The notes beneath the pieces are model-generated. The model was not told where the DNA came from. It did not search any database and worked only from the letters and a program-made list of their open reading frames with translations. DNA of 64,000 bases from Raillietiella orientalis. Taxonomy: Eukaryota. How positions within the stretch are numbered: the first letter of the stretch is position 1; the number at the start of each line of letters is the position of its first letter. Location of the stretch: assembly GCA_036172245.1 (NCBI GenBank), contig JAYWIR010000062.1, forward strand, positions 1 to 64,000, given 5' to 3'. Below are positions 1,211 through 60,100 of this stretch, piece after piece. A program made the position numbers and the translations under genes.

Positions 1211-1550
1211 AGAACAATGAGGGGTTATACCCCTCCTCTACATAGGCCCACAATTCCGCCGCGGCTGCAGGCGATGGCACCGACACAACGGCGCTCCACA
1301 CCCGCGCTGCAGCGGGGACCGATTCTGTAAGGGCGGATGCCCCCACCTCCATCGCCTCTGGGGGCGAAGTTGCCGCCGCCCCCTGGCTCTCCATCGCCTC
1401 TGAAGGCGGCGTTGCCGCTGCCTCCTGGCCATCCCTAGTGGTCGCGTCAGATATCGCCGCCTGATCGACCACCGAACCACACGACGCTTGCACTGGAGGA
1501 GACTTCCTGGCACGAGGAGCACCGAGAAAACACGTCCACCCTGGAGCACA
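1211..1550 (-). mobile_element. Subfamily K 5' end (5' UTR plus ORF1 N-terminus), inserted at the KAFD site
   Basis: Near-identical to 25977-26315 and 48930 onward. Abuts plus-strand KAVDCVNQDLLLEL. Confidence 0.9.
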
Positions 1551-3623
1551 CAAGGCGGTCGACTGCGTGAATCAGGATCTCCTCCTGGAGCTCCTGGAAC
1601 GCCTCAGTCTCCCGGTGTACCTCGTGGCCTATTTGCGCGCTTGCTGACGCCACGCGCTCATTTCCATCTCTTTTAGCGGCTGCCATGTGTACGGCTAGAC
1701 GGTGCGGCGGGGTATCAGGCAGGGCGACAGCTTAAGCCCGTTGCTCTTTAGCATCTTCTTTGAGTTCATGCTGAGGGCGTGCAGCTGATGCTGACCAACC
1801 TTCCGAGCTTTATTCCAGGAACGCCGTTTGTGTCGGCGTATGCTGACGACCTGTCTCTCCTTTTACCCATGACTATCCCAGCGTCCAGTCTCGAGTTTTT
1901 CTTCGAGTTGATTCGCCGGGGAGCGGGCATGGGTGTAAACAGGAGCAAGAGCGTGGTCGTTCCTATTGGTGCGGCGTGGGAGGGGAAGTCCGACTGGATC
2001 CGCCTGGGGATCCCCACCGCCTCGTCCACCCAATATCTGGGCGTTCCGCTAGGGAAAATCAGCCCAGTAAAAGAGTGATCGGATTGCCTTCGGAAGGCTA
2101 CGAATGCCCTGAGCCCGTTCCACCAAGGCAGGTTCGTCCTGCCAGAGCGGGCCACGATATGGAACACCTTCGTTGCCCCCCTCCTGCGCCTCCTGCTTTT
2201 TGTTTGCCCGCCCCCCTACTCGGCCAAGCTCCAGGCGCACAGCCTGTTGAGGAACGCTCTGTGGGGACCTGCGAGGTCCAGGATACGCCTTGAAGACTTG
2301 GCGGCTCCGCGTCGGGATGCTGGCTTAAGCATCCTGACGCAGGAGAGAATCGAGCTGCTGGTGCAGCTTCGAATGTTTTCCCGGTTCGCCAACCTTTGGT
2401 CCACTCCGTGGTGCGCTCCCTCGCGCCTGCTTCTGCGGCGCTGCACAGGCAGCGATGGACTTCTGTCGCTGCGGCCGCACACGGAGCGCGCCACGAGAAG
2501 CTTCGGTTTCCCCTTGAAACCGCTGTACCGGCTCCTGGAAGCCCAGGAATGGATCTCCTGCAGCCCAACGAACTTTCAAGCCTGGCGGCAGGAACCGTTG
2601 CATGGCTGGGCAAAGCACCAGGATGTTTCCCTCCTGGAACTTCGTTGCGCTCACCTGTCCCCGTATCGCACGGTGGACGAGGTGTGCAACAGTCAGGAGA
2701 AGTGGACTCCCCTGGCCGTCACGCCCCTCGCCGACGCGCTGTGAGCTCTCAGGGCAAGAGATGACAGCTGCGAATTGGCGAGATGGGAGGTCTCCTGCAC
2801 CATCGCAGGAACAACACGACCCATTGGCGGCTGGTGGACTTGCGAACTGGTGGACGCCTCCACGCCTCGCCAAGTTCCGAAGGAACTCCTTCGGTGGAGT
2901 GAACACTTAAGTGTGGCCCCCGATGAACTTGTGGTCCCTCCCTCCTGTTTGAACACTTCTGTGTTTTCCCTTTTGTGGAAGCAGGACGTCATCATGCTGA
3001 TGCATTGTGGTTTTCACTCCAACCAGCGGACTAACCGTGTTTCCGGGTGAGTTTTCTTCCCAATCTGCAAGCGGTGCGGGGTAGTCGAAACGCTTTGCAC
3101 CTGCTCCTAGACTGCAGTGCCCTCCTAGGACTTTGGCGGAGTCTGGCCTCAGCTCTTCTGCACCAGGGAGACACCGCGAGAGACTTGATGCGCCACTTCT
3201 TTGCACCAGGCGGCCTGTCTTTGGGTGCTGTCGTTGCAACCGTGTGTTGCACCCGCGCCATCGACAAGGCCCACCGAGAGTTGGAGAAGCTGGCCATCCT
3301 TCGTCAGCCCACCTGATTAGCCAGCACAAGCGGCCAAGTGGACTCATCTACGAGATTGCGTGAGGAGAGAGATAGCCGGCATCCATCGCCGGTTCTGAAA
3401 GGAAGGAACGGCCGAACCAAAGACCCCTGTTTTTTTCCATCCATATCTTAATTTTTATTTTGGTACAAGTGTATTTGTGGTCCCCTTGCTTGCGTTCTGA
3501 ACTTTGCTTATACCGATCTGCTTTCCGGCGATCCCACCTCCTTCGTCTCTTGTTTTTGTTTTGTCAAGGAACTGTGTTCCCGGATAGTTTACTAATAAAC
3601 GCCTTGACGCACCCTGATGATAA
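1551..3623 (+). mobile_element. Tx1-like ORF2 3' half (RT, zinc finger) and 3' UTR, degenerate
   Basis: RRGIRQGDSLSP, SAYADDL, QYLGVPL and CKRCG..HLLLDC motifs. AATAAA at 3594 followed by a decayed terminal hairpin. Confidence 0.85.
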
Positions 3624-4105
3624 ACAGCCGACCCCAGCGGCAAAGATGAGTACAAGGTGCGCACCGTGTTGCTGGAAACCCTTAAGCGCTTCTGGCTGGC
3701 CGATATGAACTTGCGGAAGATACACCTGATAGTTGCCGATTTTAATCTCCGTCTTGTTTCAGGTGGGCCTCTGATACATTCCAGAGAATGTGCTCTCAAG
3801 ATGTCTATCCCATGAGACACCTGTGAACACGACTTCTGGAAATAATGATGCAGAACGCGGAGAAATTTTCAACCTTAGGCACGGCATCGGTCGTCATTGC
3901 GCTGCATGTTTTCAAGACAGGAGATGACAGTAGCCAATCGTCGAGTTGGAAAGTTTCCTGCATTCTCTCACGAGACACGATACATCTCAGTGTCAGATAG
4001 ACGCTTAAGTTGATGAATGCTTCCTCTGCGCGTTCTGTGGCAAAGGCATTCCAGTTGTGGGAAGAAATTTTCAGTGTTGCCCATGAAGAAGTAATGCTGG
4101 TCCCT
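3624..4105 (+). mobile_element. Highly decayed Tx1-like EN and C-terminal fragments
   Basis: PSGKDEYK..LETLKRFWLADMNLRKIHLIVADFNLRL near 3630-3760, then C-terminal-like LWEEIFSVAHEEV. Confidence 0.6.
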
Positions 4106-4109
4106 CATT

Positions 4110-6050
4110 TATTGGCCAGTTTGTTGTTGCCCCTTGCCTAGAAACAGCGCATAATGCTTTTCGTCACTGGAAATTCCAGAGCAACGAGCGGTGGCATCGA
4201 GTTTTCGGAGGGGATTCTTCACTTCTTTGAACTTCCAGACCGCATCGCTTTTGGGGTGCCAACTTCCCAGCGACTCAGTAACGAGTGTATCTACTTCGAC
4301 CGTTGAGCTCTGTGCCTCATAGTCAAGCATCGTGCATTGGTATTTGGTGATCGTACTATTCCTAGCAACACAGGGCGACTTCTTCCTGTTTTCAAATGTG
4401 ATCGCCACATCATCGTCACATCACACGCTGTCCATCGCAATCTAGTTGCTCTGGTCAGACGGCATTGTTGATGTCCGGATCCCAACGGTTGATTGCCAGC
4501 TGCTGGTCGATTGACAATTCATTACGAGCGTTCGCATTATGGATGCCTAACGCCGCATTGTGTTTGTCCGCTATCCTAGTACCCAGATGTTGGTTGCAAT
4601 AGCAAACTACATGGCCAATGTCTCCTCCGGATACACATAATGTCCGCATACCTCTCTAAGTCTCGGACCTTGATATTGCCATTCAGGGTCAATTCATACC
4701 GTCGGGAAATTTGTGTTAACCGCCAGTCGCTGAGGCGTAATAACTCACTGCGCTCCTGGAAAAACAGGGACGCAGAGTGGAGCACAACGCAATCGATCGT
4801 GGGCACTTGATCAGACTCCGCAACTACAGTCTAGCTTTTGTGGAGGCTACCAATTCCACTGTGGTTCATACCACAACATTGTGTTCACTCTCCTGAAGAC
4901 TCCGATTGGTAGGGTTATCTTCACTACCCTGCGGATGTAGTTCCACTTAATGCCAAGTCTCTTCTACGCTTGCTGGGCACGGGACCAAACGTTTGCAGCA
5001 TCCCATCTTGAGTGATGCAGTGGTGTAGCAAGATGTTCCGTCAGATATGCAGAGAAAAGTTATGCATCTGTCAGCTGTTTCACTTTTTGTCAGATGGTTT
5101 TATTCAGAGAGTATTTGGAAAGCTGACGAATATCCGGATCAGGGAACGCAAAGAGTTAAACGTGGAGTCAGTGGACATCATATCAAACTGCTCCGCTAAG
5201 ATAAGCATCCCCAGGAATCCTTGTTTCATAAAACCGTACAGATGTTTTTCTACTGAGCACTTTGTTTCTTTGTATTGGTTCTGTGTCTTCGAGGAAATTT
5301 AATCATTTTTATTAGCGCTGAGACTGCTATGCAGCCATCACTCCTCTTGAAAAAGTGCATCGGTTTCTTGAATGCTTAGTTTAATGGACAGCATCGACTG
5401 ATATTCGGTTCTTAGTGAAGCTGTGATGGGTGTGTTGCCCACATATGCAATGGCAAACATGCTCCCCAGCTCTCTTTAAGACTGAACAAACATTTCCTTA
5501 AACCTTTGCTTGTCGGCTGCGTAGCTGATCCAGATTTTCCCCTTTTATGGCCTGCATTCAACTGGATCCAGCATTTCTCGTAAGTTGAATGCCAATTGCG
5601 CTTTCTGCAACGCTTGCTGCAGTCGAAAGCAAACAAATCTTATCACATCCCTTGTATTCATCTCTAGCATACTTCGCTTTCCTGACCTGCTGTTGCTGCG
5701 TTGCAGGTTCGGTGTGCATCAGAAAACAATCTGAGAAGAACTGTAGAGGAATCATGATGCTCAAGATGCACATGGTGAGAATATTTTCCGATTGATAGAG
5801 TTCGAATCAGTCGAATTGCTACAACCTGCTCTATATTTATTTGTTTGGAGGATGGAGTAGGCTTGCACTCTCGAATTTGAACACTTGCTTTTCAAATGAT
5901 GTTTAAGCGCTTCAGGTCTTCCCTGTTTCCTTGCACTTTGTAAGCAGTTTGCATTCCTGGCTGCCCATCTTGCTTGCCTACAGATGGCAAGTCGTTCCTG
6001 AAAAGAGCGATGTTTCTTTCTGCATTTGAACGCGAAACTGCTTTTCTGGG
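4110..6050 (-). mobile_element. Decayed NeSL/Utopia-type non-LTR retrotransposon (RT plus restriction-like endonuclease)
   Basis: Collinear minus-strand remnants: NVWSRAQQA.KRLGIKW; ASLFF..LLRLSDWRL....LTLNG; ETL/GHVVCYC..H....KHNA; PD; DVAITFEN....ARN.TITKY...VEVDTLVTESLGSWHPKSD. These are RLE-clade signatures. The RT end (boundary near 6050) is approximate. Confidence 0.75.
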
Positions 6051-6109
6051 ATTCCTATGCTGCGACTTCGCTGCTACTGTCCTCAGTTTATCTTGTTGTA
6101 ACTTAACCG

Positions 6110-6200
6110 AAGCTACCTTGCCTAACCTTACCTTACCTAACACATACCTTCTTACCTAACCTAACCTAAGCTGAAATAACTTTACTTGACTTAACCTACC
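6110..6200 (-). repeat. Degenerate (TTAGG)n/(CCTAA)n microsatellite
   Basis: cctaaccttaccttacctaa ... acctaacctaacctaa. Confidence 0.7.
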
Positions 6201-6354
6201 CAAATAAACCCAGTTTCCTTTTGCGTATTGTAAGTGTGTCACTTGAAACTTCTTAATAAGATTTCTTCATTTCTTTTGTTTGCATTTTATTGTTTCATTT
6301 TAGTAATAAGCAGTAGAGTGTTAACGCGAGAAACTTCACTTTTTCCCTGCTTAC

Positions 6355-6757
6355 TTGTCGGTGGTCGCCCAGGATGTCTAGCAGTGTTCTTATAAACTCA
6401 TGGCTGCTGTAATTATTATCTCTAAGAAGTCTCAGTAGATGTATGATTTTCGAGATTCCATTGTATCGAAGAAACATTCTCATATTTGCATCTAGGAACG
6501 GTATTGTATTGATGTCGGCATCCTGCACTGTTTCATAGATAAACGCCTTATATTCGTCGCTGATGAATATGTGATAATATGAACTCCTAGACATCCACGC
6601 GTGCAGTAGTTCGAATTCATACAAGAGCGTCCTATAGTCATAACGTTGCTCATCTAGAACGTGAAGCATCCTGGCAGGAAAACCTAAAATTTGAGAAATG
6701 TTAAAGTTATATAATATTTAGTTGTATACCTTCTTGGAAGTGTGTCACTGGAGATTT
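6355..6757 (-). CDS. Possible host gene exons (6355-6683 plus a small upstream exon ~6730-6757), unknown product
   Basis: AT-rich open exon bounded by ttttag acceptor (6684-85) and gtaagc donor (6354). A 46-nt GT..AG intron (6684-6729) is phase-compatible with the upstream exon. Confidence 0.4.
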
Positions 6758-7164
6758 CTATAAGATGGAGCTTAGTAGTGTAAGTGAAACTGAGAACTAA
6801 AGTTTGAAAAGTTGAATTGGTTTCCTAGGTTATGCTGCAATTCTGTTCCTTGTTTTGTTGATATGGTACATTCTCGCATGCACTCAGTGTTGCAAGTCTC
6901 ACCGATTTCTTCATTTTCTCATGCCGAATGTGATTTTGTTTTTTTTTTTTCAATATAGTTTTGCAGAAAAGCAGTTCAGTTGGTATTCGTTGACAACAGA
7001 TCTGAATTTTTGTTGACTTCTTCAAAGTTGCACTCCTAGAAATAGTTCTAGAATATAATTTTCTTGAAGTGAGAAATCCTTTATGAAACTTAACGACATT
7101 ATTCACCTAAAGTTGAACAAGAAGTTTGTGCAGCTCCTCAACAGTCTCACTCCAGGTTTTGGCG

Positions 7165-7770
7165 ATGTCACTCCGATACACCGAAACGTTTATTTAAAAA
7201 CTCTTGTATGGTCAACACAAAAAACGTGTTACAAGGTCTCAAAACCGACCATGCAACACAGGATCTGCCGGGACGCCGACACGCAGCCCGGTGTGACTCT
7301 CCTTGGCAGTGGAAAGGGATGGGTGAGAAAACGAAAATAAAAATAAAACTGAGAGAAAAAAAAAAAGTTTAGGGTGCTGGAAAGGGATAAGGGTCCATCC
7401 TTCGCAGGATGCACTCGAGGTCCATTCGCATCTGTCTCAGTTGGGACAATCCAGCAGCTCTCTGCATAAAGCGAAGAACATACGGGATAACTTCCTTCTC
7501 GTTGGATTCAACACCTTCGTCCTCGGCATCACTCTATGCCGCCTCCATGCCCCGGATGCATCGAAGCACTGCAAGGGCAGAGGCGGACTGCAGGACTTCC
7601 CACACGAACAGGAGTCGTTGAACGTTTCTAGGTACGCTGCCCACTTGGAGCCCGATTGTCCAGTCAAAATGTTACCAAAGGGGCGGGATGGCAACACAAT
7701 CAACAAGGAGTTGGGAGAAGGATTCACGCTCCCTGCACCTGGCACACTTAGGCTTAACTCTCCCCAGTCC
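7165..7770 (-). mobile_element. Old Tx1-like 3' fragment ending at a GFG site
   Basis: CARCRERESFSQLLVDC zinc finger, 3' UTR, AATAAA and decayed hairpin. Flank 7125-7164 reads QLLNSLTPGFG on plus. Confidence 0.8.
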
Positions 7771-10470
7771 TTGCCCGTGTCCTTCTAGAGAGCGGAGGTA
7801 GTTTGGCATTGCTCAGCGGTCTAGTTAGTGCGAAGGTTTTCGGTGGTTTTGTCTGGTGTGTAGGAGCACTGGTGTCCCATGGCAGAAATGCCTGAGGACA
7901 CCGCAATGGAAATTGAGGGAGGAGAGGCGACTTGCTCTCTACTTCCCATGAAAGTGGGGCGTCCGCCCCCACGGAATCCGGGGCACTTGCCCCATTGGAA
8001 TCGGGGGCAACCGCCCCTTCGCGACTCTCTTCGCCAGGGGCGAGGAGTTGGAGTGCCGTCGTTGCTGCACCATCCCCGGCTGCAGTAGCGGAGTAGACTG
8101 CCTACAAGGACAGTGGCTACAAACCGTTGCTGGATCTACAAGGTAGGAAGTGTGTTCGACGAGAAAACTGCACGCTCCTTTGAAATGGAGCGTCAAAGAC
8201 TGAATGTGAGGGTGGAAGACCTCGAGGGCCTATGCGTCCTTAGTGGGGGACAGCAAGTTGAGCTGACATGCAGAGAGACAAGTTTGGCGCAGCGCCTGCT
8301 GAACACCCCGACTACGGTGAACGGCCGAAGGATCTTCCCTGTGACGGAGGACCTCTCCGTCTTGGTCCACCTTACGGGCGTAACACTCCGGATGGACAAA
8401 ACCAGCGTCCATGAGGAGTTGTCAAAACACAGTAGTGTGCACGCGTATTGGGCCAAACCCAATGTCTTCCAAACGAAAGGAAGGCTATTCAGTGGGATGG
8501 CCGCTACCCGCGTCACACTACCGGAGAATGGTGGGTTTCCCAACAAACTAAATTTCGGCGAAGAAAAAGTCGATGTTTGGTACGTGGAAAAGCCCAAGTA
8601 TTGTGGCCATTGCGATGCTACAGGGCACTTGAAAAAACGGAGCCCTAACATCGAATGTCACTTATGTGGAAATAAGGGCCACATACGAAAGCTGTGTCCA
8701 ATATGAGAAATTTCGGTCCCACCCGCAGCCAAAAAGACAAAGGGGAAACGGGTGGGAGAGACGAATACCATTTAGCAGGCTGTAAGGAGCCAGATGCCAG
8801 TCCCTAAGCCATCCCAGCAAACGTCGGTTGAGAGCATTCCCGACGACGCTGGCGACGGCGAAGGCTGGCAGATGGTACAGCCCAGAAGAAAGCCCGGGAG
8901 TCCCGAACGAAGCGCGGGGAAAACAAAAACGCAGCGCGAAAAACCGTGCCGCGAAAAACTCCGCACTTGTTCGGTAAAATTAGAGCGTGTGGAGGCATTC
9001 GATACCACCACCGGGGAAGCAATGCCCCTCCTCGCGTCCGCCGAAGCCGCGACGGTCGATGGGGAACCCTCTGGTGAAACAGAGGGGGAACGGCGCCCCG
9101 CGCTCGACGCGATCAAGGAGGCCGCCTTCCAGTAGGCGGTGGAAGAACTCGCGGCTGAACTGCAAGGCCGTGAGAAGAACTCGCAGAAAGGCTTACGAAG
9201 ACCGGCCAAGAGGAAGGCTCCGGATGCAGGTGAGGCCGAACCGGATGCCGGAAGTGCGTCCTTCTCAACGGAGGCGCCACCAAAGAAGACGGGACGCAAG
9301 TCCCAGAATCCCAGGCGGCGCATACGGATCAAGAAGGAGGAGGATGAACTGACACCCAAGGTTGAAGCCAGCAGCGTGGGAGGCGAGGGTGGGAATCTCT
9401 CATTTCTCGACACCGTGCAGCTGGCGACCCCAATAGAAGAGGAAGTGCAGGTGGGTGGAACCCCCCCTCCCTCTGCACGGCCCTGACGAAGATTCGGCCC
9501 CCATGGAGGAGGGAGAAGCGGTGCGCGACGCACCCCCTCTTCCTAGCGTCCCGCCCGACAAGGTGGCGGGAGCCTCATTGCCACTTTCCCAAAATTAACA
9601 GCTGGGCTCTCCTGTCGCCATAGGATCCGCTTAGCCTGCTGGAACGTCAACCGGCTGCGCGACGACGGCAACAGGCAGGATACAGCCGACACCCTGCGCG
9701 ACTTCGACCTGGCGCTCCTGCAGGAGATCCACGTGATCACCGCGGAGAACGCCCAGGAGATCGAGAGAATCGCAGGAGGTTTTGGCAATGCGGCGCTCGC
9801 AACACCTGTGGCGTCGCCTTTTTTATGAAGTCAGCAGTCGCCGCCTCCGTCAAGGACGTACGCTTCGATAACGACAGTCGTGTTGGCCAGCTTATCATCA
9901 GGTGGTTCGACTCGATCGACCTTGTCGTGACCAATGTGTACGCTCCGAGCGGAGGATGGGGATACGGGGAACGTTCCCGGTTCCTCGAAACCCTGAAGCG
10001 CGACTGGCTGGCGGATACAAACGTACGCAAGGCACATCTGATCGGCGGGGATTTCAATATCCGCCTACTCTCAAGTGAGCCTTGCGGGCAAAAACACGCA
10101 GCCAACGAGCTGTGCGCTGCTATGCGCACGCGCAACATGTTGAGAGACATACCGGAAATGGTCCAAAGCGTAGACCACGTCTTACTTGACGCCGAGCTAT
10201 GCCCACGGGTCGGCAGACGAGGGAAACTTCCGTCGACGCTATCGGACCATTTGCCGTTGGTATTCGAGGTTATGCCTCGCGACAAAGGACCACCATCCAG
10301 GGCGTGGCATCTTCCCAGGGACTAAACGCGCATCTCAGGTGCGGCGGAACATCGCGAAGTACTAAGAGGCGTCATCCCCCGGAATCTCCAAGACTGGCAC
10401 TGCATGAAGGCCTCGGTCAGCGAGTTCTGCAAAGAGTTCCCTGTGCACCGCCTGCCAAGGAGATTTGGTG
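7771..10470 (+). mobile_element. A-like Tx1 element 5' half (ORF1 from 7879; EN to the GFG site), disrupted
   Basis: MAEMPEDTAME start, CGHCDATGHLKKR knuckles, EN motifs ACWNVN, LQE, NVYAP, GDFN, SDH. Ends at FPVHRLPRRFG. Confidence 0.9.
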
Positions 10471-11878
10471 TTGCCACCCGGGTACGCCCGGGGCGTTTAT
10501 TTTGAAACTATACAATGCGTGGTACAAGGCCTCACCACGGCCATGGAAAAGGGACCTACCGGGACGCCGGAAAGCAGCCCGGCGTGGCACTCCCCGGCAG
10601 CGAAAGGGGATGGAGGATAAAAACAAAAACAAACAAAAAATAAACAAACAAAAAGAGTTTGGAGGGCAGGGAAGGGAAAAGTGGACGCTGTGAGGAGGGC
10701 CCATCCGTCGAAGGAAGCCCTCGAGGTCTGTCCGCATACTTCCCAGATGGGGCCATCGGGCAGCTCTCCGCAAGAAGGTACTGCGTGCTGGATGACGTCC
10801 CTCTCGTTCCAATCTTCATCTTCGCTGCTGGCATCGCTCGAAGCCGCCACGATGCCTCGAACGCAGCACAGGGCTGCGAGGGCTGATGCTGGCTGCAGGG
10901 CGTCCCGCAAGAAGAGAAGGCAAAAAACGTCTCTGGGTGCACTGCCCGTAGGGAGCCCGAAGGTCGTCCCAAACCGTTTCCAAAAAGGTCGGAGGGCATC
11001 ACAATCCAATATAATGTAGGGGAGAGATTCCCGCTCCCCGCACATGGCACACGCAGAATCCACAGCTCCCCTCGTCCAGTGGAAGCGGCGCGCGTTGCAG
11101 GGTAGACCCCAATGCAACTGGAGCAACGCTGACTCTTGCTACTTAAGGGGCAGGATCCTAAATTCCTTCATTACTGGGGGCCACTTCAGCTCCTCCCTGA
11201 AGATGGCGAGCAGCTAGCCCAATCTCAAGTTTCCACGCGGCTGGACGCTCGGGGTGGTGGCGTCCGCCAGTTGACCCATGGTCCAGCCGCACATCTCCCG
11301 TCCCTCGATGCAGCAGGAGACTTGCCACCTTAGCGTCCCGCTACTGTGAAACGCGCTCCTCAGGAAGGCATCGCCGTAGCAAGGCAGGTTGTCTCGGTCC
11401 ACGTGCTTGTAGCGGGACTCTTAAAAAGATCCAGCAGCGTGCAGCGGGGATCAAGGCCGCATCGGAGACCATTCCACGTTTCGTGGCTTCTCCGGTTTAC
11501 CACAACCCAGATGCCGATGTTCTCCTCCAGCCAGACGGAGGAGTTGGGAGGGCTGCAAACCATCCAGCGGTTCTCCATGGCCAGAGTTGCCATGCGCCCG
11601 AACAGTAAGCCGCAACTTCGGATCTTCCGGCCGGGGCACAGAAGAAATGACGCAAGTCCATTGAACCGGGACACAAGGCTGGCCAGGAGGTGGGCCGGAA
11701 AGCACCAATGGGTGTTCCACATATTCGCAGCGATCGTGAAAGCATCCAGCATGCTGGCAGACCCGGATTGCCACGCTTGTCGCTCGGCTCCGGCGCGGTA
11801 TTCGGCCAGGCGACGGACATTGGGGTTCCTCTCGTGACGATGCGCGTGCAAATACGCGCGTTCGTTGCGAGCCCCATC
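10471..11878 (-). mobile_element. Internally deleted Tx1-like ORF2 (linker fused to C-terminus) with intact 3' end
   Basis: GDGARNERAYL..AWQSGSAS fused near 11745 to TIAANMW...LHWGLPCNARRFHW..CAMCG. AATAAA-hairpin at 10471-10501. Confidence 0.85.
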
Positions 11879-22853: not shown

Positions 22854-22881
22854 AATAAACGCCCCGGCGCAACCGGGTGAA
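22854..22881 (+). terminator. Conserved 3' terminus: AATAAA plus CCCGG-loop-CCGGG hairpin (example of ~12 copies)
   Basis: aataaacgccccggcgcaaccgggtgaa. Same architecture at 3594, 7165, 10471, 14670, 23865, 31517, 35532, 46989, 53645, 56991 and 62087. Confidence 0.8.
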
Positions 22882-38196: not shown

Positions 38197-38727
38197 GGTC
38201 CGGGGTGAGCACTCGCCGTTCCGCGGCGAGTGTGTCACGCCTCAAGGCTTCAGCCCTGCGGGCGCTCGCTCCCGCGCGAATAACGCGTCGTTCAGCGGCG
38301 CTATCGGACTCCTTTGCAGAGTCTGATGCTCGCACGATCGAGTGCGCTTGCATCCGTCCGATTGCACCGGAATGCACTTCTCGGCGGTCACAGAAGCGGA
38401 CTTGCACGCGTTGAAGGCGCTGGCTTTTTCCTGGAAAGAGGCACAAGCCGCGCGTGTCTTCGTGTTCGCGCGACTGCTTTTTCCTTTGAAAGAGCTCAGG
38501 GATGGATGTTGCGAAGCTTTTTTCGGAGATTTTTCTTTCCTCCTCTCCACAACCTTCCGTTCGCCTTCGCGATTTTCGGAGGCTTCCGCGACAGTAGTTG
38601 CGGAAACCTCCGGGATTTTCGCGGCGTTCTCTGGGAGCGTTGCTTTCGCCACGCCTTTAAAAGGCGGCAACGGAGTCAACTTCTTGACATCCGGGAGATT
38701 GCTCCTCTCCTGCCGAGTCGGCGACGA
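38197..38727 (-). mobile_element. Outer element O, part 2: ORF1 disordered tail
   Basis: Lies between two TSD copies linking it to 44316 onward and to 23864. LNDALFARE resembles IDDVAFARA of other ORF1 tails. Confidence 0.7.
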
Positions 38728-50266: not shown

Positions 50267-50366
50267 TCCGCGGCCAGTTGGAGGACGTGTTTTTCCTTCA
50301 CTCCTCAAAGGGTAGTAGGAAAGCGCTTTCTTGTGTGTGGTGTTTAGTGTACATCGTCGGTGTCCA

Positions 50367-52115
50367 ATGGCCACGACGCCAGAGGACACCGCGATGGAGG
50401 TGGGAGTGGGGGAGGCTAGTTCGCCCCCACAGCCTACTGGAGCAGGGGCAGCCGCCCCGGAATCATCCCCGGCCACGCCGAGGACATGGAGCGCCATGGT
50501 GGCCGCGCCCAGCGCAGAAGCCATGGCGGAGATGGCCGCATACAAGGCCTCCGGGTACAAGCCATCGCTTGTCTACCAGGTAGGCAACTTGTTCGACGGC
50601 CGGACAGCGCGCGCCTTCAGCAAAGCGTTGAAGGACGCGAATGTTACTGAGAAGGATCTGGACGGCCTCTCCGTCCTCAGCGGCGGGCAGCGGGTCGAGG
50701 TGGTCTGCAAAGATGTCACCTTGGCTCACCGCCTAATCCATGCGCCGCTGAACGTAGACGGCCGCAAGATCCTGCCAGTATCAATGGACCGCTCCGTGGT
50801 GGTCCACATGACTGGCATCACCAGCCGCATGACGCGGTCAGCGGTTGGTGAGGAATTGCGGAAATACGGTGAGGTGCACGCACTGTGGCCGAAACCCTCC
50901 ATTTTCGACGGCTTCGATAGCCTTTTTGGTGGGCAGGCTGCAGCGCGGGTCACCGTACGGGAGAATTGTGGGCTTCCACACAAACTACAGGTGGCGCAAG
51001 AAAACGTCGACCTGTGGTATGTAGGGAAGCCCCGGTATTGCGGGCATTGTGATACCGTGGGACACCTACGTAAAAGGTGTCCCAATATACAATGCCATTT
51101 GTGCGGGGAGCGGGGCCACGTTCGGCGCGTGTGTCCCAAACGCCCCACCCCGGTTCCCCCTGCCGCGAAAAAAGCGCAGGGGAAACGTGCTTCAAAGGTC
51201 TCTAGACCTAAAGTAGAAAAGGGCCAGCACAAGCTGCCAACACCTCAACCTCCGGCGCGTAAGCCGGAGGATAAACCTTCTGAAACGGTGGAAGGCGAAG
51301 AGGGATGGCAGCTTGTAGAGGCCAGAAAGCCGAGGAAACTCCCACCCGCGGAGAGCAAAGAGCGCAAGACGGCCGGTAAGCCGAAAAAACCCGGTCCGCG
51401 CTCGAAAACTCTGCGCGAGTGCACGGTGGCACTGGAACGAATCGTCGTTCCCGAGATTGCCACCCGGAGCGTCGATCCTCCCCTTGCCGTTTCCGCTGCG
51501 CCCGAGGCTCGCGACGGCGAACCCTCTGTTTACACAGAGGGTGAGCCGCGCGACATAGCGGCGGTCGAAGCCGCGGACGCCGCGTTCGCGCAGGCGGCGG
51601 AGGAGCTCGCGGTCACGCTGGCCGAGCGTGAGAACCCCTCGCGCAAGGCCGTGCGAAGGCCGGCTCCGGCGAAGGCCCCCACAGGTGAGTTAGACCTGGG
51701 GGCCGGAAGCACATCCTCCTCCTCGGAGGCACCCCCCAGGAAGTCGGGACGCAAGTCCCAGAAGCCCAGGAGGCGCCTCCCCTCCACCAGCGAGGAGGAG
51801 AAGACGGAAGCCGTCGCCAGCGTGGGAAATTCGGAGGAGGAATTCCCACGCTCGGAAGCCGTCGATCCGGCCACCCCCATGGAGGAGGGTGAACAGGGGG
51901 GTGAAGTCCCCCCTGCAGGCGCCGACCCTGAACAGCCCGCCCCCATGGAGGAGGGCGAACAGGTAGGCGCGACTCCACCTGCGGGTGATCCGGCCGACGC
52001 GCCGGCACCGATGGAAGAGGGGGACCAGGTGCCTTCAGCACCTGACCCCCCTCCTCCACCTAGCGTCCCGCCCCAGCAGGTGGCGGACGCCGCACTGCCA
52101 TCTTCCCAGGAGTAA
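50367..52115 (+). CDS. Intact Tx1-like ORF1 (582 aa; putative RRM-like region, 2 CCHC knuckles, acidic PMEEG-repeat tail)
   Basis: Uninterrupted ATG-to-TAA frame. CGHCDTVGHLRKRC and CHLCGERGHVRRVC. Confidence 0.85.
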   Translation: MATTPEDTAMEVGVGEASSPPQPTGAGAAAPESSPATPRTWSAMVAAPSAEAMAEMAAYKASGYKPSLVYQVGNLFDGRTARAFSKALKDANVTEKDLDGLSVLSGGQRVEVVCKDVTLAHRLIHAPLNVDGRKILPVSMDRSVVVHMTGITSRMTRSAVGEELRKYGEVHALWPKPSIFDGFDSLFGGQAAARVTVRENCGLPHKLQVAQENVDLWYVGKPRYCGHCDTVGHLRKRCPNIQCHLCGERGHVRRVCPKRPTPVPPAAKKAQGKRASKVSRPKVEKGQHKLPTPQPPARKPEDKPSETVEGEEGWQLVEARKPRKLPPAESKERKTAGKPKKPGPRSKTLRECTVALERIVVPEIATRSVDPPLAVSAAPEARDGEPSVYTEGEPRDIAAVEAADAAFAQAAEELAVTLAERENPSRKAVRRPAPAKAPTGELDLGAGSTSSSSEAPPRKSGRKSQKPRRRLPSTSEEEKTEAVASVGNSEEEFPRSEAVDPATPMEEGEQGGEVPPAGADPEQPAPMEEGEQVGATPPAGDPADAPAPMEEGDQVPSAPDPPPPPSVPPQQVADAALPSSQE

Positions 52116-52588
52116 CACCTGGGCTCGCCAGTCGCCGTCGGATTCGCGCGGCCTGTTGGAATGTCAACGGGCTGCGCGACGACGGTAACAGGCGAGATAC
52201 AGCCGACACCCTGCGGGAGTTCGACCTGACCCTGTTGCAGGAGATCCACGTGATCACCGCGGCAGACGTCCAGGAGATCGAGACGATCGCGGGGGGTCGG
52301 CTGTACTGGCAGTGCGGCATCCGCAACACCTGCGGGGTCGCGTTCTTCGTGAAGCCGGCCATCGACGCTGCCGTGAAGGGCGTGCGCTTCGATGACCACG
52401 GTCGGGTCGGTCAGCTGACTCTCGGCTGGTCCGACTCGATCGATCTGATCGTCACGAATGTGTACGCCCCAACCGGTCAAAAGGGATACAGCAACCGTAC
52501 CAGGCTGCTGGAATCCCTGAAGCGCGACTGGCTGGCGAACACGAGCGTGCGGAAGGCTCACCTGATAGCGGGAGATTTCAGTCTCCGC

Positions 52589-53674
52589 TATCAGGACGAG
52601 GACGAGTACTGCAGGACGAGGTGAAGTTTTCTACCCTGGCTGCCACGCCTCTTGCCGCAGCGCTGTCTGCCCTCAGGGCAAGAAACGACAGTTACCAACC
52701 GGCGAGGTGGGAGGTTTCCTGCACGATAGCGGGAAGAACCAAACTCCTTGGCACCTGGAAGACAAGTGAGTTGGCGGACGCCGCCACTCCTCGTGTTACT
52801 GCAAAGGGACTCCTCCGGTGGGCAGAAGAACTTGCTGTCACCCCCGAAGAACTTGTAGTCCCTCCACAGTGTATGGACAGTTCGCTGCTCCCCCTTGCTT
52901 GGAAATAAGCCGTGCTGCTTTTCGTTCACTGGGGTTTTCAGTGCAACGAGCGTTGGCATCGTGACTCCGGGGGACTTGCGTCTGCGAACTGCGTTCGGTG
53001 CGGATCGACGGAGTCGATTCCGCACCTACTTCTGGACTGCGGTGTCCTACAAGGACTGTGGCGTAGGCTGGCAACAGCACTATTGCATCCCGTGGACACC
53101 GCAAGAGACTTGCTGCGACGATTCTTCACGCCGAGCGGGCTTTCACTAAGCGCAAGGATTGCAACCATCGGTTGCATACGCGCGATAGTTTCCGTCCGCC
53201 AGGCGTTGGTAATCAACGGACAGCACCAAGAGGTAATCAGCAAAGCATCCTTCTACATGGGAGCATCCGCTAGATGGCCTCATTTGACAGAGGAGACAAA
53301 GAGGAATCTCGCCGCAATACACCGCCGGTTTACACACCCTCATCAGCGGCCAACCCGGTGATCATTGCCCTACCCTCCATAAACTAAATTTGTATTTTCT
53401 TTTTACACCCGCGTCCCCATAGGCTCCGGAACATTTTAGGTGCTCATCGTATAAATCCCCGTGAGTACGGAGCCTAACCAAAAACCCGTTACCCTTCCCT
53501 CCAGTTTTTGATTTTTGTTTGTTTCCCCTCATTCCCCCCACGCTGCGAGCGGTTTGTTTACCAGGCCTGCGTGCCGGTAATTTTTCTATGTTCTCTGTCG
53601 TTCTGTTGGTTAAGGACATTGTCCCTGACCAGTTTATTATTATTAATAAACGCCCCAGCGTGACCGGGTGATAA
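52589..53674 (+). mobile_element. 5'-truncated Tx1-like copy inserted in sense orientation into the EN GDFNLR motif
   Basis: 14-bp TSD atttcaRtctccgc (52575-88 and 53675-88). CVRCG..HLLLDC. AATAAA at 53645 plus hairpin. Confidence 0.9.
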
Positions 53675-56600
53675 ATTTCAATCTCCGCCTGCTAACAGGT
53701 GAGCCGGAAACACAAGTGAACGCGATGAACGAGTTGTGCGCCGCCATGCGTGCGCGCAACTTGTTCGCGGGTGAGAGGGGAATGGTCCGCAGCATCGACC
53801 ACGTCTTCCTCGACGCTGACCTGTGTTCACGGGTCGGCAAACGGGGGAGGGTTGCGTCGACGTTGTCGGACCATTCCCGGTTAATTTTCGAGATGCGGCC
53901 TCGCGACAAAGGACCGCCATCCAGGGACTGGCGTCTGCCAGGGGACTGGACGCGCCTCTCAGGTGCGAAGGTACACCTTCGCGAATACCTGAGAGGCGTC
54001 ACGCTCCGGAATCTCCAAGACTGGGACCTTTTTAAGGAATCGGTCCGGGAGTTCTGCGAGCAGTTCCCCCTGGACCGCCTGCCCTCCGGATTCGGCGAGG
54101 GTCCTCGCAACCATCGGGCCTATTTACAGGCCCGAAGGTACGAGCGAACCCCTAATGTCCGTCGCCTGGCCGAGTACCGCGCCGGGGCCGAACGCCAAGC
54201 CTGGCAATCCGGGTCGGCCAGCTTGCTGGACGACCAGGGCCGGGAATGTTCGTCCCCGGCGTCGGTACGGCATCTCGTGCGGAGTTATTATTCCTCCCTT
54301 TACGCCAGGGCGCCCCCGGATCAAGATGCCTCTCGGCTCTTGCTTCCGGATGGTGCCCCGGCAATAGGGGAGGAGGAGTCGTTAAGCCTCGATGAGCCTT
54401 TTACCACCGGCGAAATTCTCGCCGGTATCAAAAGGCTCAAGAGGCGGAAAGCTCCAGGGGAAGACGGCTTGCCCGCGGAGTTCTATCAGAGCTTCGCGGA
54501 AGAGCTGGCACCCCTGCTGCTTCAGCTGACAAGGCTGATCCGAGACGAAGGCGATGTTCCCGCCTTGTTTCGGTCAGGCAGAGTGAGGCTCCTTCCAAAA
54601 GGGGGAGACATTAGGAATTTGAACAACTGGCGTCCGATCACGATTGTGAATACGGACGCCAAGCTGTTCGCCGGACTGTGGGCTTCGCGTCTGGGGCAGG
54701 TGGCCAATTCCATTATTAGCCCGGAGCAGACATATGCTGTTCCCGGGCGAAGTATGGATGCCAACCTGTTCTTCGCGAGCACATGGTTCCATGTGCAGCG
54801 CTGCCTAAATGAAACTGGCGGAAAGGTTGGCAACCCCACTTTGGGGCCGCCAGCTGGGCTGGGAATGGGCACCCAGACTGGGAAGGGGGCCCTAGCGATC
54901 GCGGTCGATCTACATAAGGCGTTTGACTGCGTTGACCAGGAGCTACTGTTGGAGCTCCTGGGTCGCATGGGCTTCCCACCCTCCCTTCTCTTATTCCTGC
55001 GCTCTTGCTGGCGCAACGCCATCCTTAACATCTGCTTTTCCAGCCAACAGGTGTACGGCGTGCCGGTGCGGCGGTGCATACGGCAGGGCGATAACCTCAG
55101 TCCCCTGCTGATTAGCGCCTACTTTGAGTTGGTGCTGAGAGCGTACAGGGTGACTTTGGCTGCCCTGCCCAGCTCGTGCCCCGGCACGCCCGCCGTAGCA
55201 GCATACGCCGACGACCTTCTGCTCATGTTGCCCATGTCCGCCCCGGCAGCCGCAGTCGAGGATTTCTTCTACCTGCTAAGTCGTAAGACTGGACTTCGGG
55301 TAAACAAGGCGAAGTCGTCGGTCGTACCGGTGGGTGCGACGTGGGTCGGACGGCCTGACTGGATCCGCTTAGGGACCCCCGCGGACAGGTACCTGAAGTA
55401 CCTGGGTGTCCCGTTGGGGGACTTCTGCCTCGCAGAAGCCTGGTCGGGTCGTCTCCAAAAGGTAGAGTTGGCAATCGGCCCGTTCCTGGAAGGCAAGTTC
55501 CTTCTGCCGGAACGGGCTGCGGTGTGGAACGCGTTCGCGGCTCCCATCCTCCGCCCCCTGCTTTTTGTGTGCCCCGTCCCCCGTGACATTAAAAAGAGGA
55601 CCAAGGACCTACTCCGCATCGCCCTCTGGGGCACGGGAGGCCACGTGTGCCTCTAGATGACTTATGCGCTCCTCGTCGCGACGGCGGTCTCGGCCTCCTG
55701 ACGCTGGAGCGCCTGGACATACAGCTGCGATGGCGCACCCTCGCCATCGCAGCAAAGTCATGGAGCACCCCTTGGTGCGTTCCGGCCCTACTCCTCGCCA
55801 TCCGTGTGTCCAGGACGCAAGGACTCGCGTCGTACCTTCTGTGCTCTGGCAGGAAGGTCAGAAGATGCGGCCTTCTCCTTGGGCGCATGGAAGCCCTGGT
55901 GAGAGACAACGGCTGGACGGTATGCAGCCCCGCCAACTCCTCCGCCTGGCTGGAGAAATCCGTTGCGACGTGGGCCAAGCTGAACCTCCAGACTTCCCCG
56001 GACTGGAACCGCCTGCGATTCGGCCCCAACGCCTGCTGCACACTGCGGACTACTCTGGAGTGTCCCGCCAGGAGCACGTGGGCGGAGACTACCCCCCTAG
56101 CTTCGACCATGCCCTTCCTACGAAGGGCTTTAACCAGCGGCCGCAAGCCAAAGTGGCAAGTCTCCTGCCGAATAGCAGGCAAGGATAAGATGAGCGGTTG
56201 GACCATGGGATAATTAGCAGATGCCACAACCCCGAGTGCCCTCCCGCGTGGACTTCGTAGATGGGGCGAGCTGCTCGGCATCCCGACGGATGACCTGAAG
56301 TGGCCCCCAATATTAATCGGATCCAGGCTTCACCCCCTTAAGTGGCAAGAGTCGGTGCTGCTACCGTTGCACTGGGGTCTACCCTGCAACGCGCGCCGCT
56401 TCCACTGGACGCGGGGAAGTGTAAGGCCTGAGTGTGCCAGGTGTGGGGAGCGGGAATTGCTCCCCCACTTACTTGTTGACTGTGCTACCCTCCGACCCCT
56501 GTGGGAACGGTTCGGGACGACCCTCGGGCTCCCAATTGGCAGCGCGCCCAGAGACGTTCTTCGGCCCCTCTTCGCGCGGGACGCCTTGCAGCCCGCCGCA

Positions 56601-57021
56601 GCCCTCGCAGCCCTCTGCTGCATCCGCGGCATCGTGGCGGCCTGGAGCGACATTCGCGACGGAGTGGACGCCAACGCGAGGGATGTCATCCCGTATGCGG
56701 ACTGCTTCATGCGGAGAGCTGCGAGATGGCCCCATCTGGGAAGCATGAAGATGGACCTGGAGGGCATCCTTAGAAGGATGGGCCCTCCTCCCAGTGGATT
56801 GTGATCCCTTCCCCTCCCTCCAAACTCTTTTTGTTTTTCTTTTCATATCTTTATTTTTCTTTTTGTTTTGATCCCTATCCCCCTCCACTGCCGAGGAGCG
56901 TCACGCCCGGCTGCATCCCGGCGTCCCGGCAGGTCCGGTGTTGTGTGGCCGTTAGTGGGGCCTCGTACCACGTTTATGTAGAGTTTTTTCAATTCACGCC
57001 CCAGGATTCCCCGGGTAACAA

Positions 57022-57117
57022 CCCCAAATCCCCGGGGCAGGAGGTGCAAGGGGAACTCCTCGCAAAACTCGCGGACCGAGGCCTTAAAAAGGTCCCAATC
57101 AGCGAGATTGCGGAGCG
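57022..57117 (-). mobile_element. 96-bp subfamily A remnant between the DW and GFG sites
   Basis: TLRNLADWDLFKASVREFCEEFPLHLLPRGFG. Near-identical to 17580-17675. Confidence 0.85.
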
Positions 57118-60100
57118 TCGAGCGGACGTGTGTTTTCGCTGCTCCTGAATTTCGATTTCCGGTGGTGCTTGTGCGTGGTGTGGGTGGAGGATTAGGCAGC
57201 AATGCCTGATACCACCACCGGTGAGGATCCGGGGGCGATGACCTCATTGCCCCCGGAGGAGATATTGGTGGGGGCTCCCGCATCAGTGGAGGCTCCCGCC
57301 AGCACGGATGCGCCCCCGGCCCTACCCAGGGCTTGGAACGCCGTGGCTGCGGCACCTACGCCAGCGGCTATGGCGGAAATGCGCGCTTACCTGGAGGAGG
57401 GGTATAACCCACCCCTTCTATACAAGGTAAGCGGTTTATATTCTCCCGAGAACGCGCGCGCCTTTTCGCAGGCGATGCGCGTTCTCGGTGTACACAAAGA
57501 GGAGCTAATGGCTATGTCCGTCAGAAGCAGGGGTCAATTTGTGGAAGTTATCTGCAAGGAGGCAACTCTTGCGCAGAGACTTCTGCGAACCCCCGTAATT
57601 ATGGGCAGCCGGAGGCTTCTCCCAATTACTGAAGACCGGTCGGTGATCATTCACCTGACCGGTATCACGTTCCGGATGACGAAGGAGGCCGTCCGGAACG
57701 AATTAGAAAAATTTGCAACTGTCCACGCGCTGTGGGGAAAGCCTACTCCTTTTGTCGATTACGACGGGGTGCTTGGCGGCCTGGGTGCAGCGCGAGTGAC
57801 CGTTCGCGAAGGGTGTGAGTTTCCCCACAAATTCACCGTCAACGGTGAATCCGCGGACGTGTGGTACGTGGGGAAACCCAAGTTCTGCGGCTGCTGCAGC
57901 AGCTTTGGACACCTCAAAATGAGGTGCCCGAGCGTACAGTGCCAGCAATGCAAACAAGCGGGGCACACCCGTGTGGTGTGCCCCCAAAACACAGTCCGCG
58001 TCGTGTCCGCAAAAAACGCAAGAAAGCGCGCGGCTAAAAAAAGAAAGCTGGCAGCTCGTGCTTCTGCTAAGGAGGTCACCTCCGCCACCAAGGCGAAGGC
58101 CAGCCCCGAGACCCTGGCGAAAAACGCCGAAAAGGTCGAGGGCGAGGGTCAAGAGCCAGGGTGGCAGAAGGTCTACCCCAAGAAAAACTCCCCTAAGAAG
58201 GGAAACGGAGCGAAACCGCTCCCCGCCGCGAAAAAATTAAAAGCTGCTGCGACGTCGTTGAGCGGATTCCCACCATCGACGAATGCGGCGCTAAAGAACT
58301 CGCTGCTGCCCCTGCTCAACCCTCCGTTGACAAAGTCAACAAGGAGGGGAGCGAGGCGGCGGCATCCGTCATCGAGCCCACGCTCCATGACGTCGCCTTC
58401 GAGCGCGCCGCGGAGGAGCTGGCTGCCTCGTTGCAGCCGGCCGCCCCCAAGGCTGGCAAGAAGGCCGTCAGGCGTCCGGCTTCCTCTCAGGAGTCGGCCA
58501 CTTCCGACCCCGAGGTGAAGGCCGGAAACAGCATCCATCTCCGCGGCACCCCGCAAAACGGCAGGACGAAAGTCCACAATGCCCCGGAAGATCGTCTCCC
58601 CCGACGAAGGTGAAGAGATGGCTTCCGGTAGCGAGGGTGCCATGAGCGTGGGAAACTCCCGGGACCCGTCGCCCGAGAGAATTCCACGCTCGGACACGGA
58701 GGGGATGGTGAGGATGGAGGCCGAACAGGTACCCCAGGCGTCTGAAGAGGCCTCCGTCCTCGTACCGATGGACCTTTCCTACACCTGCCCCGTGGCAGGT
58801 GCCGCGACGCCACTTTCCCAGCCCTAATGCCGGCAATCGCCTCTCGCCGTCGTCTGCTGATCGCCTGTTGGAACGTGAACGTGCTAAGCGACGACGGCAA
58901 GAGGCGTGACGTGGCCGCCACCCTGGCATCCTTCGACCTGGCGCTGCTGCAGGAGATCTACGTGATCTCCGCAGATCAAACCCGGGAGATCGAACGGATC
59001 TCGGGAGGGTGGCTGTTGTGGCGTTGCGGCACCGCGAAATCAAGCGGTGTCGCCTTCCTGATTCGGCCAGCCATCGAGACCGCAATAAAGGACGTTCGGT
59101 TCGATGACGCAGGTCGCGTCGGTCAGCTGACTCTCAGCTGGTCCGACTCTATCGACCTGGTCGTCACCAACCTATACGCTCCTAGCGGAAGCTCCGCGTT
59201 GAGGGCGAAGGCAAGAAGGGATTTCTACGTTGCCCTGAGACGCGAATGGCTGACCGATGCAGGAGTTCGCAAAGCGCACCTGATCGCAAGGAGAGGCAAG
59301 CCTGGCAATCCGGGTCGGCCAGCTTGCTGGACGACCAGGGCCGGGAGCACTCGGTTCCTGTTCAGAAACGCGGGATAGTGAGGAAATTTTACTCCTCCCT
59401 GTACGCCAGCGCGCCTCCGGAGCAGGCTGTCTCACGACTCCTGCTTCCGGAAGGTGCTCCAGCGATCGGGGAGGAGGAGAAAAGGAACCTCGACGAGCCT
59501 TTCACGATGGGCGAGATCATCTCGCCCATCAGAAAGCTCAAGAGGTGAAAGGCTCTAGGGAAGCACGGCCTGTCCGCGGAGTTTTATCAAACTTTCGCGG
59601 CAGAGCTTACTCCCCTGGTACATCAGCTCACCTTGCTGATCCGCGAAACAGGTGACGTTCCCACCTCGTTTCGTTCAGCAAAGGTGCGGCTCCTCCCAAG
59701 GGAGGAGACCTTAGGAGCATCAACAACTGGCGTCCCATCACAATAGTGAATGCGGATGCCAAGTTGATAGCTAAGGTTTGGGCTAAGCGCTTGGGACGGG
59801 TTGCAAACGCCTTCATCAGCCCGGAACAGGCGTATGCTGTTCCGGGGCGAAGCATGGAGGCGAATCTGTTCCACGCTTCCACCTGGCTAGAGCTCCAACA
59901 CGAAAGGGGCTTGATGCGCACCGGGAATTCCGGTGAGTCCGTCAGTCATGCGAAGGATGGTCGGATGGGGGAGGGAGCACTTGCGGTCGCTGTCGACTTG
60001 CGTAAAGCATTCGACAGCGTCGACCAGAATCTCCTGCTGGAGCTTTTGGAACGCTTGGGCTTCCCGGCCTCATTATTGGCCTATCTGCGCTCTAGCTGGC

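Follow-up and report, generated by a model that had tools for sequence, protein, structure and literature searches.

Recurrent antisense insertion of related LINE lineages at four fixed positions of ORF2 in a 64-kb nest from Raillietiella orientalis

Introduction

Long interspersed nuclear elements (LINEs) that insert at specific sites are known for ribosomal DNA (rDNA), telomeres, small nuclear RNA (snRNA) genes, microsatellites and a few DNA or long terminal repeat (LTR) transposons, and sister lineages of the R1 clade differ in their targets. A contig of Raillietiella orientalis (JAYWIR010000062.1, assembly GCA_036172245.1) raises the question of whether related LINEs can also use one another as targets. 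Indeed, fragments of a single LINE family fill nearly the whole of its first 64 000 nucleotides (nt), the stretch analysed here and hereafter called the window, and their ends fall repeatedly on the same codons of the second open reading frame (ORF2) of other copies. The original prediction, made from these letters alone, saw in this nest a set of mutually targeting Tx1-like subfamilies, each with its own antisense site in its relatives. We found no description of LINE lineages homing to one another's ORF2 in open-access papers and preprints. In what follows, we examine whether the recurrent ends are real, whether they arose independently, which lineage uses which site, and how such a nest could have formed.

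Element ends recur at four positions of ORF2

Host positions are given on a ruler, the element K (window 25978–31545, 5568 nt), on which fragments were placed by tblastn and blastn; K2650, for instance, denotes nucleotide 2650 of this element. Copies are referred to by lineage as K-, A-, G- and D-type. The ends of every lineage carry the same signature: 5′ ends begin with 4–12 nt followed by GGACGTGTTTT, and 3′ ends consist of AATAAACGCCC, a short GC hairpin and a tail of the form TG(G/A)(C/A)AA(C/TC), as in GTGGCAAC and GTGAAAATC. The hairpin is a conserved motif, with a structure that is only predicted (RNAalifold on 11 sequences: five pairs, one compensatory change). Neither poly(A) nor any A run is present at the 12 family 3′ ends of the window.

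Motif and alignment searches recovered these 12 3′ ends together with 11 5′ ends. Eight of the former and seven of the latter lie at only four sites, where they represent 12 insertion events (GFG, five; KAFD, three; AKLL, two; DW, two), and the insert is antisense to its host in 12/12 cases. At the GFG site (K2650–2658), 3′ ends are found at 7165, 10471, 35562 and 57021, and 5′ ends at 11890 and 32387. The KAFD site (K3464–3479) holds 5′ ends at 1549, 25978 and 48931 and a 3′ end at 31545. Junctions at 14670/20516 and 46989 share the AKLL site (approx. K3235), and the DW site (approx. K2560–2577) holds a 3′ end at 22881–22883 and a 5′ end at 57118. Host-sense alignments place the breaks to within 1–2 nt. 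All termini listed in the original prediction thus proved to be real element ends with the shared 5′ and 3′ motifs. When the 17 family-hosted events were placed uniformly in 100 000 simulated runs, the clustering averaged 1.0 and reached at most 9; the observed 12 was never attained.

A full 5′ end is kept in eight of the 12 events, and the complete insertions at the four sites are flanked by target site duplications (TSDs). That of A1 is a perfect 15-bp repeat, ACGCCAAGTTGCTGG, that of G3 measures 10 bp with 9/10 matches, and that of the D-type, deduced from two different events, would measure approximately 14–15 bp. Independent copies of the repeated target are hit at one position and in one orientation, with a TSD of typical length, as is usual for sequence-specific LINEs.

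The original prediction described the sites as conserved coding motifs, and at the amino-acid level this stands: KAFD is motif A of the reverse transcriptase (RT), and AKLL lies within the NxDAKI block in an alignment to L1 ORF2p. At the nucleotide level it does not. When 15-nt windows of five aligned ORF2 copies are ordered by conservation, the four sites come out at percentiles 29, 47, 85 and 65, so that the motifs are conserved at the protein level only. The exact A-type 15-mer occurs solely in the two occupied hosts; the AKLL site of K itself carries two differences from it, and A1's own site more, reading AAG-CTG-TTC versus AAG-TTG-CTG in the A-type target. Each of the three K-type targets carries (c)ACAAR; the five motif-A sites that stand empty have ATAAR, CGAAAA or CGTAAA instead, and K's own motif A (CGA-AAA..GAT) differs from its targets (CAC-AAR..GAC). 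These differences, seen in small numbers, fit escape or self-avoidance.

Lineages and the sites they use

In the endonuclease tree, G3 and G4 (92.5% alike) form a group with 100% support and use the GFG site; at their 3′ ends, G1, G3 and G4 are 79–83% alike. A1, which uses AKLL, forms a separate branch within the larger clade of G3 and G4. K, together with the K-like copy host2, uses KAFD and belongs to the same clade as G2b and D (80.2% alike, support 89%), which use DW. By our own arithmetic, a perfect 5/3/2/2 partition of lineages among sites would arise by chance with a probability of 5!3!2!2!/12!, approximately 6e-6. As judged from sequence and from this tree, the association of subfamily with site that had been predicted is supported within the window, each site being used by one lineage. 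The 3′ tail does not choose the site, because the tail ..GGCAAC is common to the A- and G-types, and ..GAAAATC to the K- and D-types, while the members of each pair use different sites.

Targeting between lineages was also predicted to be mutual, and the sequences support reciprocity. At AKLL, A2 has entered the K-like host2, and K2 has in turn entered A2 at KAFD; the host of A1 is a D-type ORF2 (G2b) and that of D is X, an A-type fragment; H_K hosts both K and G3. Targeting is not strictly non-self, as will be seen below.

The insertions are independent

Inserts at a given site resemble each other far more than their hosts do. K, K2 and K3 are 92.5–93.6% alike over their common first 295–339 nt (95.8% for K and K2 over 1342 nt), versus 67.2–72.8% for their hosts over the adjoining 800 nt. 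The original prediction, which held the junctions not to be copies of one another, is borne out by this gap between K-type inserts (92.5–95.8%) and hosts (67–73%). It had reserved the AKLL pair as a plausible duplication; here too the events are independent, A1 and A2 being 93.3% alike over 1787 nt versus 76.0% for their hosts over 1296 nt. In each case, the drop in identity from insert to host coincides exactly with the junction. Moreover, the KAFD site is intact in A1 and broken in A2, its 93% relative. Alignments confirm the proposal that the KAFD, GFG and DW sites of A1 are all empty; the companion claim that A2 was hit at all three holds for KAFD, broken by K2, whereas the full set needs an assumed deletion of approximately 5 kb between K2 and G4.

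A sequencing run from the public archive provides one more comparison. It is the sole run with related sequence (Logan contigs with 8% of the window's words), and from it 527 short contigs were placed, 30 of them at least 99% alike. One, found among the six of 270 loose ends that were inspected, is 98% like D1 (seven differences in 362 nt) and lacks the 3′ end of G2b; the host coding sequence (antisense ..EDWD..) continues leftward from 22884. The relative represented by this contig thus has its DW site unoccupied. Among the 15 of 25 joints inspected, that from 25817 to 30103 carries K-5′-like filler. The only close relative in the protein collection, P0001 from a public metagenome, is 69% identical to the RT region of K and open over 619 amino acids (aa); uninterrupted copies of the family thus exist elsewhere, since its AKLL and KAFD motifs are intact. 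A metagenome scan with a degenerate 3′-end pattern returned five loci, of which 0/5 were similar to the window by blastn or tblastn and which are therefore chance matches.

The recurrent junctions of the window cannot be the product of chance or copies of one junction.

A possible mechanism and its alternatives

What the window displays directly is a set of precise recurrent junctions with fixed orientation, TSDs, independent origins and a match between lineage and site. The best explanation, which we hold to be likely, is that the nest is the work of several sister lineages of one LINE family, each with a short sequence of its own in its relatives' ORF2 at which it integrates by target-primed reverse transcription, by means of a lineage-specific endonuclease nicking the sense strand. 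Read in host sense, the insert's 3′ end is in every case preceded by a fixed motif, and the first nick would therefore fall on the coding strand of the host: after GGN-TTY-GGN (the GFG codons) for the G-type, after ..AAR-GCN-TTY-GA (RT motif A) for the K-type, after GCC-AAG-TTG-CTG(G) for the A-type and after CTCG(A/C) for the D-type (CTCGA in D1). The last of these nicks lies a few nucleotides upstream of the DW codons after which the site was named in the original prediction. The exposed 3′-OH would then prime cDNA synthesis directly on the non-polyadenylated tail (..GGCAAC or ..GAAAATC), with which the primer could pair over 1–2 nt (GA with ..UC; G with ..C), and a second nick on the other strand, 10–15 bp upstream, would generate the TSD. 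Because the nicked strand is the host coding strand, inserts would come to lie antisense and to split the host ORF2. In this scheme, the endonuclease, rather than another domain or the RNA, would read the target, as is held for other site-specific LINEs (PMC4494074), and the arrangement may offer the inserts a safe harbour while disabling relatives.

Several alternatives deserve consideration. The four positions could be general hot spots, owing to DNA structure, chromatin or a weak endonuclease preference common to all lineages (e.g. YTCGR), with the partition as a small-sample effect. The nick contexts do have a common T/C-rich ..TCG(A/G) core, events per site are few, and E7 and the tighter G group both occupy GFG though only 72–74% alike. 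However, 12/12 events obey a partition that random assignment would yield at approximately 6e-6, the K- and D-types go to different sites despite a common tail and sister endonuclease clades, and so do the A- and G-types with their common ..GGCAAC; this account seems unlikely to us. Site choice could also be guided by nucleic-acid homology, a read-through RNA with downstream host flank annealing to the same site in another copy. Such an RNA would match the flank, given that all source copies are themselves inserted at that site, and the downstream TSD copy of K differs at 2–3 positions, as if partly imported; in other site-specific LINEs, a co-transcribed target is said to strengthen specificity (PMC4494074). 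Yet the 3′ ends are sharp, with the same tail in every copy, flanks beyond the TSD match the new host and not the previous one, the TSD of A1 is perfect, and a nick at a fixed position would still need an enzyme. We consider guidance by homology quite improbable.

Lastly, each site might go back to one ancestral nested junction, multiplied by segmental duplication, with inserts later homogenized by gene conversion. Some self-alignments do cross junctions (e.g. 13423–15108 versus 45744–47426, 80.9%) and other rearrangements are also present in the nest. Against this stand the contrast between inserts (93–96%) and adjoining hosts (67–76%), with its change exactly at the junction, the KAFD site empty in A1 and filled in its 93% relative A2, the hosts of different lineages in different nests, and the empty DW site of a relative; it is very hard to credit.

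Several observations nonetheless weigh against insertion by lineage-specific endonucleases, or complicate it. All results come from one 64-kb window and one public sequencing run, and events per site are few (5, 3, 2, 2). The two copies of the K TSD (approx. 10–13 bp) differ at 2–3 positions, all of them transitions. Three of the four GFG-like sites matching GGNTTYGGNG in other copies are unoccupied, and we found nothing that separates the filled GFG sites from the three empty ones. The protein alignment of the endonucleases reveals variable stretches and loops without a clear specificity determinant. Five other junctions with family hosts, those of H_K, S, N, M and E4, lie off the four sites, and two of these insertions (H_K and S) are in sense orientation; the predicted rule of fixed antisense sites thus holds for 12/12 events at the four sites, whereas the two sense insertions and the three other junctions escape it. 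E7, inserted at GFG, is only 72–74% like other G-type ends and as distant from them as A1, so that use of GFG is not limited to one tight subfamily. Relatives are hit, as predicted, but targeting is not purely cross-lineage, for G1, itself a G-type copy, has received a G-type insert. Two elements are moreover chimeras: in 'G2', the first 1.25 kb is 92% like G3 and the ORF2 groups with D; in 'D', a D-type endonuclease is joined at 59288/59291 to an RT grouping with H_K, and the 3′ end at 62118 is not at a DW site. Nor is the 5′ flank of G4 a GFG site, for its end at 50283 abuts an internal point of K2. With G2 and D chimeric and this flank displaced, the picture depends in part on assumed deletions and recombination.

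Beside the K junction, the TSD copies (25965–25977 versus 31546–31560) show at least two differences of CpG type, and their rate of difference is above the divergence of K from K2 (4–7%).

An L1-group family

K carries ORF1 at 26073–27758 and ORF2 at 27749–31327, the latter with five in-frame stops. In this ORF2, Pfam detects an apurinic/apyrimidinic endonuclease-type (APE) domain (PF03372, E = 1.5e-9, aa 15–222) and an RT domain (PF00078, E = 2.3e-22, aa 463–731), both of which it also finds in long frames of other copies. Compared with solved structures, ORF2 comes closest to human L1 ORF2p (E = 4.9e-41), R2 proteins following at approximately 1e-12. A zf-CCHC domain is detected in the ORF1 frame of A1 (E = 3.2e-4); the translation of K reveals two CX2CX4HX4C patterns in ORF1, the second with an in-frame stop at its residue 2, and a C-terminal CCHC motif in ORF2, CVRCGERESLFHLLVDC. 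An APE endonuclease with an RT closest to L1 ORF2p, and CCHC motifs in ORF1 and ORF2, place the family by sequence in the L1 group (L1/Tx1). The narrower label of Tx1-like is a lead at most: an Atlas cluster automatically named 'Transposon TX1 ... 149 kDa protein' comes at rank 6 (score 0.92), and the named sequence matches are distant fungal RTs.

Comparison with known systems

LINEs of the Tx1 clade, found in animals, target DNA transposons (piggyBac-type Tx1D, Mariner, Harbinger), LTR elements, microsatellites and snRNA genes, with Tx1L in Tx1D, Tx1-Mar in Mariner-N4_AMi and Tx1-9_AMi in Harbinger as examples, and their choice of target is attributed to the endonuclease, according to Kojima 2015 (PMC4494074). 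The family described here resembles them in being an APE-type L1-group LINE inserted at one position of a multicopy target, which may itself be a transposon, with related lineages that differ in targets. The target-sequence-specific insertion typical of the clade takes the form here of 12 events at four nucleotide-precise sites. By contrast with the targets listed above, however, the insertions here fall antisense within the coding part of ORF2 in sister lineages of one LINE family, and at least four lineages with different sites hit each other.

Nesting within one's own family recalls Zepp of Coccomyxa ('Chlorella' C-169) and ZeppL of Chlamydomonas, which are centromere-associated L1 LINEs (PMC3446292, PMC8226300). 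Similarly, 11 of the 12 family 3′ ends of the window abut another family copy; the remaining one, that of Hk3, is flanked by DNA that is not LINE-derived. An (A)n terminus is listed for both Zepp and L1-1_CR (PMC3747384, table 3), unlike the present family with its lack of poly(A). Zepp arrays are described as mostly 5′-truncated 3′ ends (PMC3446292, PMC8226300), whereas eight of the 12 events here have a full 5′ end. Fixed sites, fixed orientation and partition by lineage, all seen here, do not figure in the Zepp and ZeppL accounts as far as these extend (PMC3446292, PMC8226300).

With the rDNA- and repeat-specific LINEs of the R1 and R2 clades (R1Bm, R2 and SART/TRAS), the family shares nucleotide-precise, orientation-fixed insertion in a conserved multicopy sequence, a characteristic TSD length, a 3′ end that is precise without depending on poly(A) and a safe-harbour logic. 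The targets of those LINEs are host genes or repeats under host selection, whereas here the target pool would be produced and renewed by the relatives' transposition and each hit would destroy a competitor's ORF2.

If sister lineages do home antisense to different positions of ORF2, they would represent a new class of target and a clear example of transposons in direct conflict with one another. This would also provide a simple route of growth for LINE-only islands such as those at green-algal centromeres. Furthermore, it would supply a natural panel of close APE endonucleases with distinct long recognition sites, of use for studying how these enzymes choose targets and for retroelement-based site-specific gene insertion. 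One may go further and see an arms race, in which each endonuclease was retargeted to coding sequence carried by its rivals and lost from its own ORF2 via synonymous or conservative changes. Taken as a whole, this reading is possible, though we doubt it more than we believe it. Were it true, each jump would kill a competitor and land in DNA dispensable to the cell, the victims would replenish the target pool as they transpose, the nest, growing by itself in alternating orientation, could be the counterpart of a Zepp-type centromeric island, and the endonucleases would form a natural series of related APE enzymes (65–80% identical) with different 10–15 bp specificities.

Composition of the nest

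The GC content of the window is approximately 0.58–0.62, except at 3.6–8 kb and in the final 2 kb. At the left edge, K3 (1211–1549, minus strand) is a K-type 5′ end fragment (K1–339), 92.9% identical to K over 339 nt, with its 5′ junction at the KAFD site of Hk3 (1550–3625, plus). The latter is a divergent host, on a long branch in the RT tree, that extends from RT motif A to the 3′ end (tblastn aa 565–1082; 3′ motif at 3594). To the left of K3, at 1210/1211, a plus-strand ORF1 (227–1219) joins it at K339; both points are internal, which makes this joint a rearrangement and not a retrotransposition junction.

Hk3 is followed by 3.5 kb at 43% GC (3626–7164), in which no coding similarity was detected except for approximately 30 LINE-like codons just left of 7165. 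The possibility that this stretch is a deaminated LINE copy was dropped, as purine/pyrimidine recoding was swamped by spurious matches, only the known E7 standing out. The short low-GC, LINE-like fragment Hlow (7070–7164, plus), with a translation ending in ...TPGFG, hosts E7 (7165–7790, minus), the 3′ 630 nt of a G-like element (K4966–5477) that is 72–74% identical to G1, G3 and G4 and has its 3′ end at the GFG site. The GC content of E7 is 0.51 versus 0.58–0.61, and its differences from G1, G3 and G4 run approximately 2 : 1 for GC-to-AT over AT-to-GC.

E4 (7791–10470, plus), extending from the 5′ end to the GFG site (K1–2658), hosts G1 (10471–11889, minus), a G-type copy with an internal deletion, 82.6% identical to G3; the 3′ end of G1 lies in the GFG site of E4, and the GFG site of G1 is in turn interrupted at 11890. 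There begins 'G2', of which the 5′ third, Ga (11890–13140, plus), consists of a G-type 5′ untranslated region and ORF1, 92% identical to G3, with its 5′ junction at the GFG site of G1. The remainder, G2b, is D-type: its left part (13141–14669, plus) carries ORF2 up to AKLL, with an endonuclease grouping with D, and its right part (20517–22883, plus) runs from AKLL to the 3′ end, with tail GTGAAAATC and a 3′ junction at the DW site of D1. Between them, A1 (14670–20516, minus) is a full-length A-type element in the AKLL site of G2b, flanked by its 15-bp TSD. The 5′ junction of 'G2' falls at the same nucleotide as the GFG junction of G3 and its 3′ junction at DW, and recombination between G-type and D-type inserts of the same orientation is the simplest account of its origin; two such inserts lie unrecombined, 97 nt apart, at 57021/57118. 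A larger deletion would be needed as well, because the hosts G1 and D1 are different elements. That D1 and G1 form one host was rejected, G1 being G-type and the endonuclease of D1 60–66% identical to that of every other copy. D1 itself (22884–23863, minus) comprises a divergent ORF2 start and endonuclease, broken at DW.

The host H_K is split into three minus-strand parts: a 3′ part (23864–25977, K5568–3464) that hosts K, a middle part (31546–32386, K3479–2650) from KAFD to GFG, and a 5′ part (35563–38190, K2658–1). K (25978–31545, plus), a full-length K-type element, occupies its KAFD site, and G3 (32387–35562, plus), a G-type copy with an internal deletion (K2428–4643), its GFG site, with the 10-bp TSD given above. 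H_K as a whole is sense-inserted in M/D1 with the TSD ACCCCGGA (8/8 bp). M (44257–45680, minus), a divergent 5′ end with ORF1, is probably the same element as D1 and has its 5′ junction in host2 at approximately K1913. The region 38191–39400 is assigned to M/D1 only via the H_K TSD, no CCHC motif and no ORF1 similarity having been detected in it. Inside the ORF1 region of M lies a different LINE, 'L2' (39400–44250, plus), with a GC content of approximately 0.54, an ORF2 29% identical to that of K, and long open frames for ORF1 (39639–40643), endonuclease (40531–41685) and RT (41686–42618); its own motif-A site (EKAFD, 42281) is unoccupied.

Host2 (45681–46988, plus) is a K-like copy (K1913–3229), 88.9% identical to K and 91.3% in the endonuclease, broken at AKLL by the 3′ end of A2 (46989–48930, minus). 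A2 is the 3′ part of an A-type element, 93.3% identical to A1, and its KAFD site is broken by the 5′ junction of K2 (48931–50282, plus), a K-type 5′ part (K3–1399). Compared with A1, A2 lacks 150 nt (47426/47428 versus 15109–15258) just upstream of the C-terminal CCHC. This deletion starts approximately 15 nt or less from the position of the E4 5′ junction in E7; the boundaries do not coincide.

G4 (50283–57021, plus), a G-type element, lacks 4 nt at its 5′ end, where it abuts K2 at K1399, and is joined by its 3′ end to X at the GFG site of the latter. It contains S (52588–53675, plus), a 5′-truncated copy of another lineage inserted in sense exactly at the codons for the GDF(N/S) endonuclease motif, with a 12-bp TSD (11/12) and the tail GTGATAAAT; G3 is collinear with G4 and lacks S. 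The S site may be a fifth class of site, seen as a single occurrence. X (57022–57118, minus) is a 97-nt A-type fragment, 91.8% identical to 17579–17675 of A1, between the GFG hit by G4 and the DW hit by D. The D-type 5′ part of 'D' (57119–59288, plus), with 5′ end, ORF1 and an endonuclease grouping with G2b, has its 5′ junction at the DW site of X, and is joined to N (59291–62118, plus), which extends from the RT, grouping with H_K, to a 3′ end abutting an antisense G-type endonuclease fragment (62121–62250). This fragment was rejected as the rest of A2, being 81% like the endonuclease of G3 and G4 and 72% like that of A1. At the right edge, a second copy of the divergent Hk3 lineage (63664–64000), cut by the end of the window, is 91% like 2150–2487.

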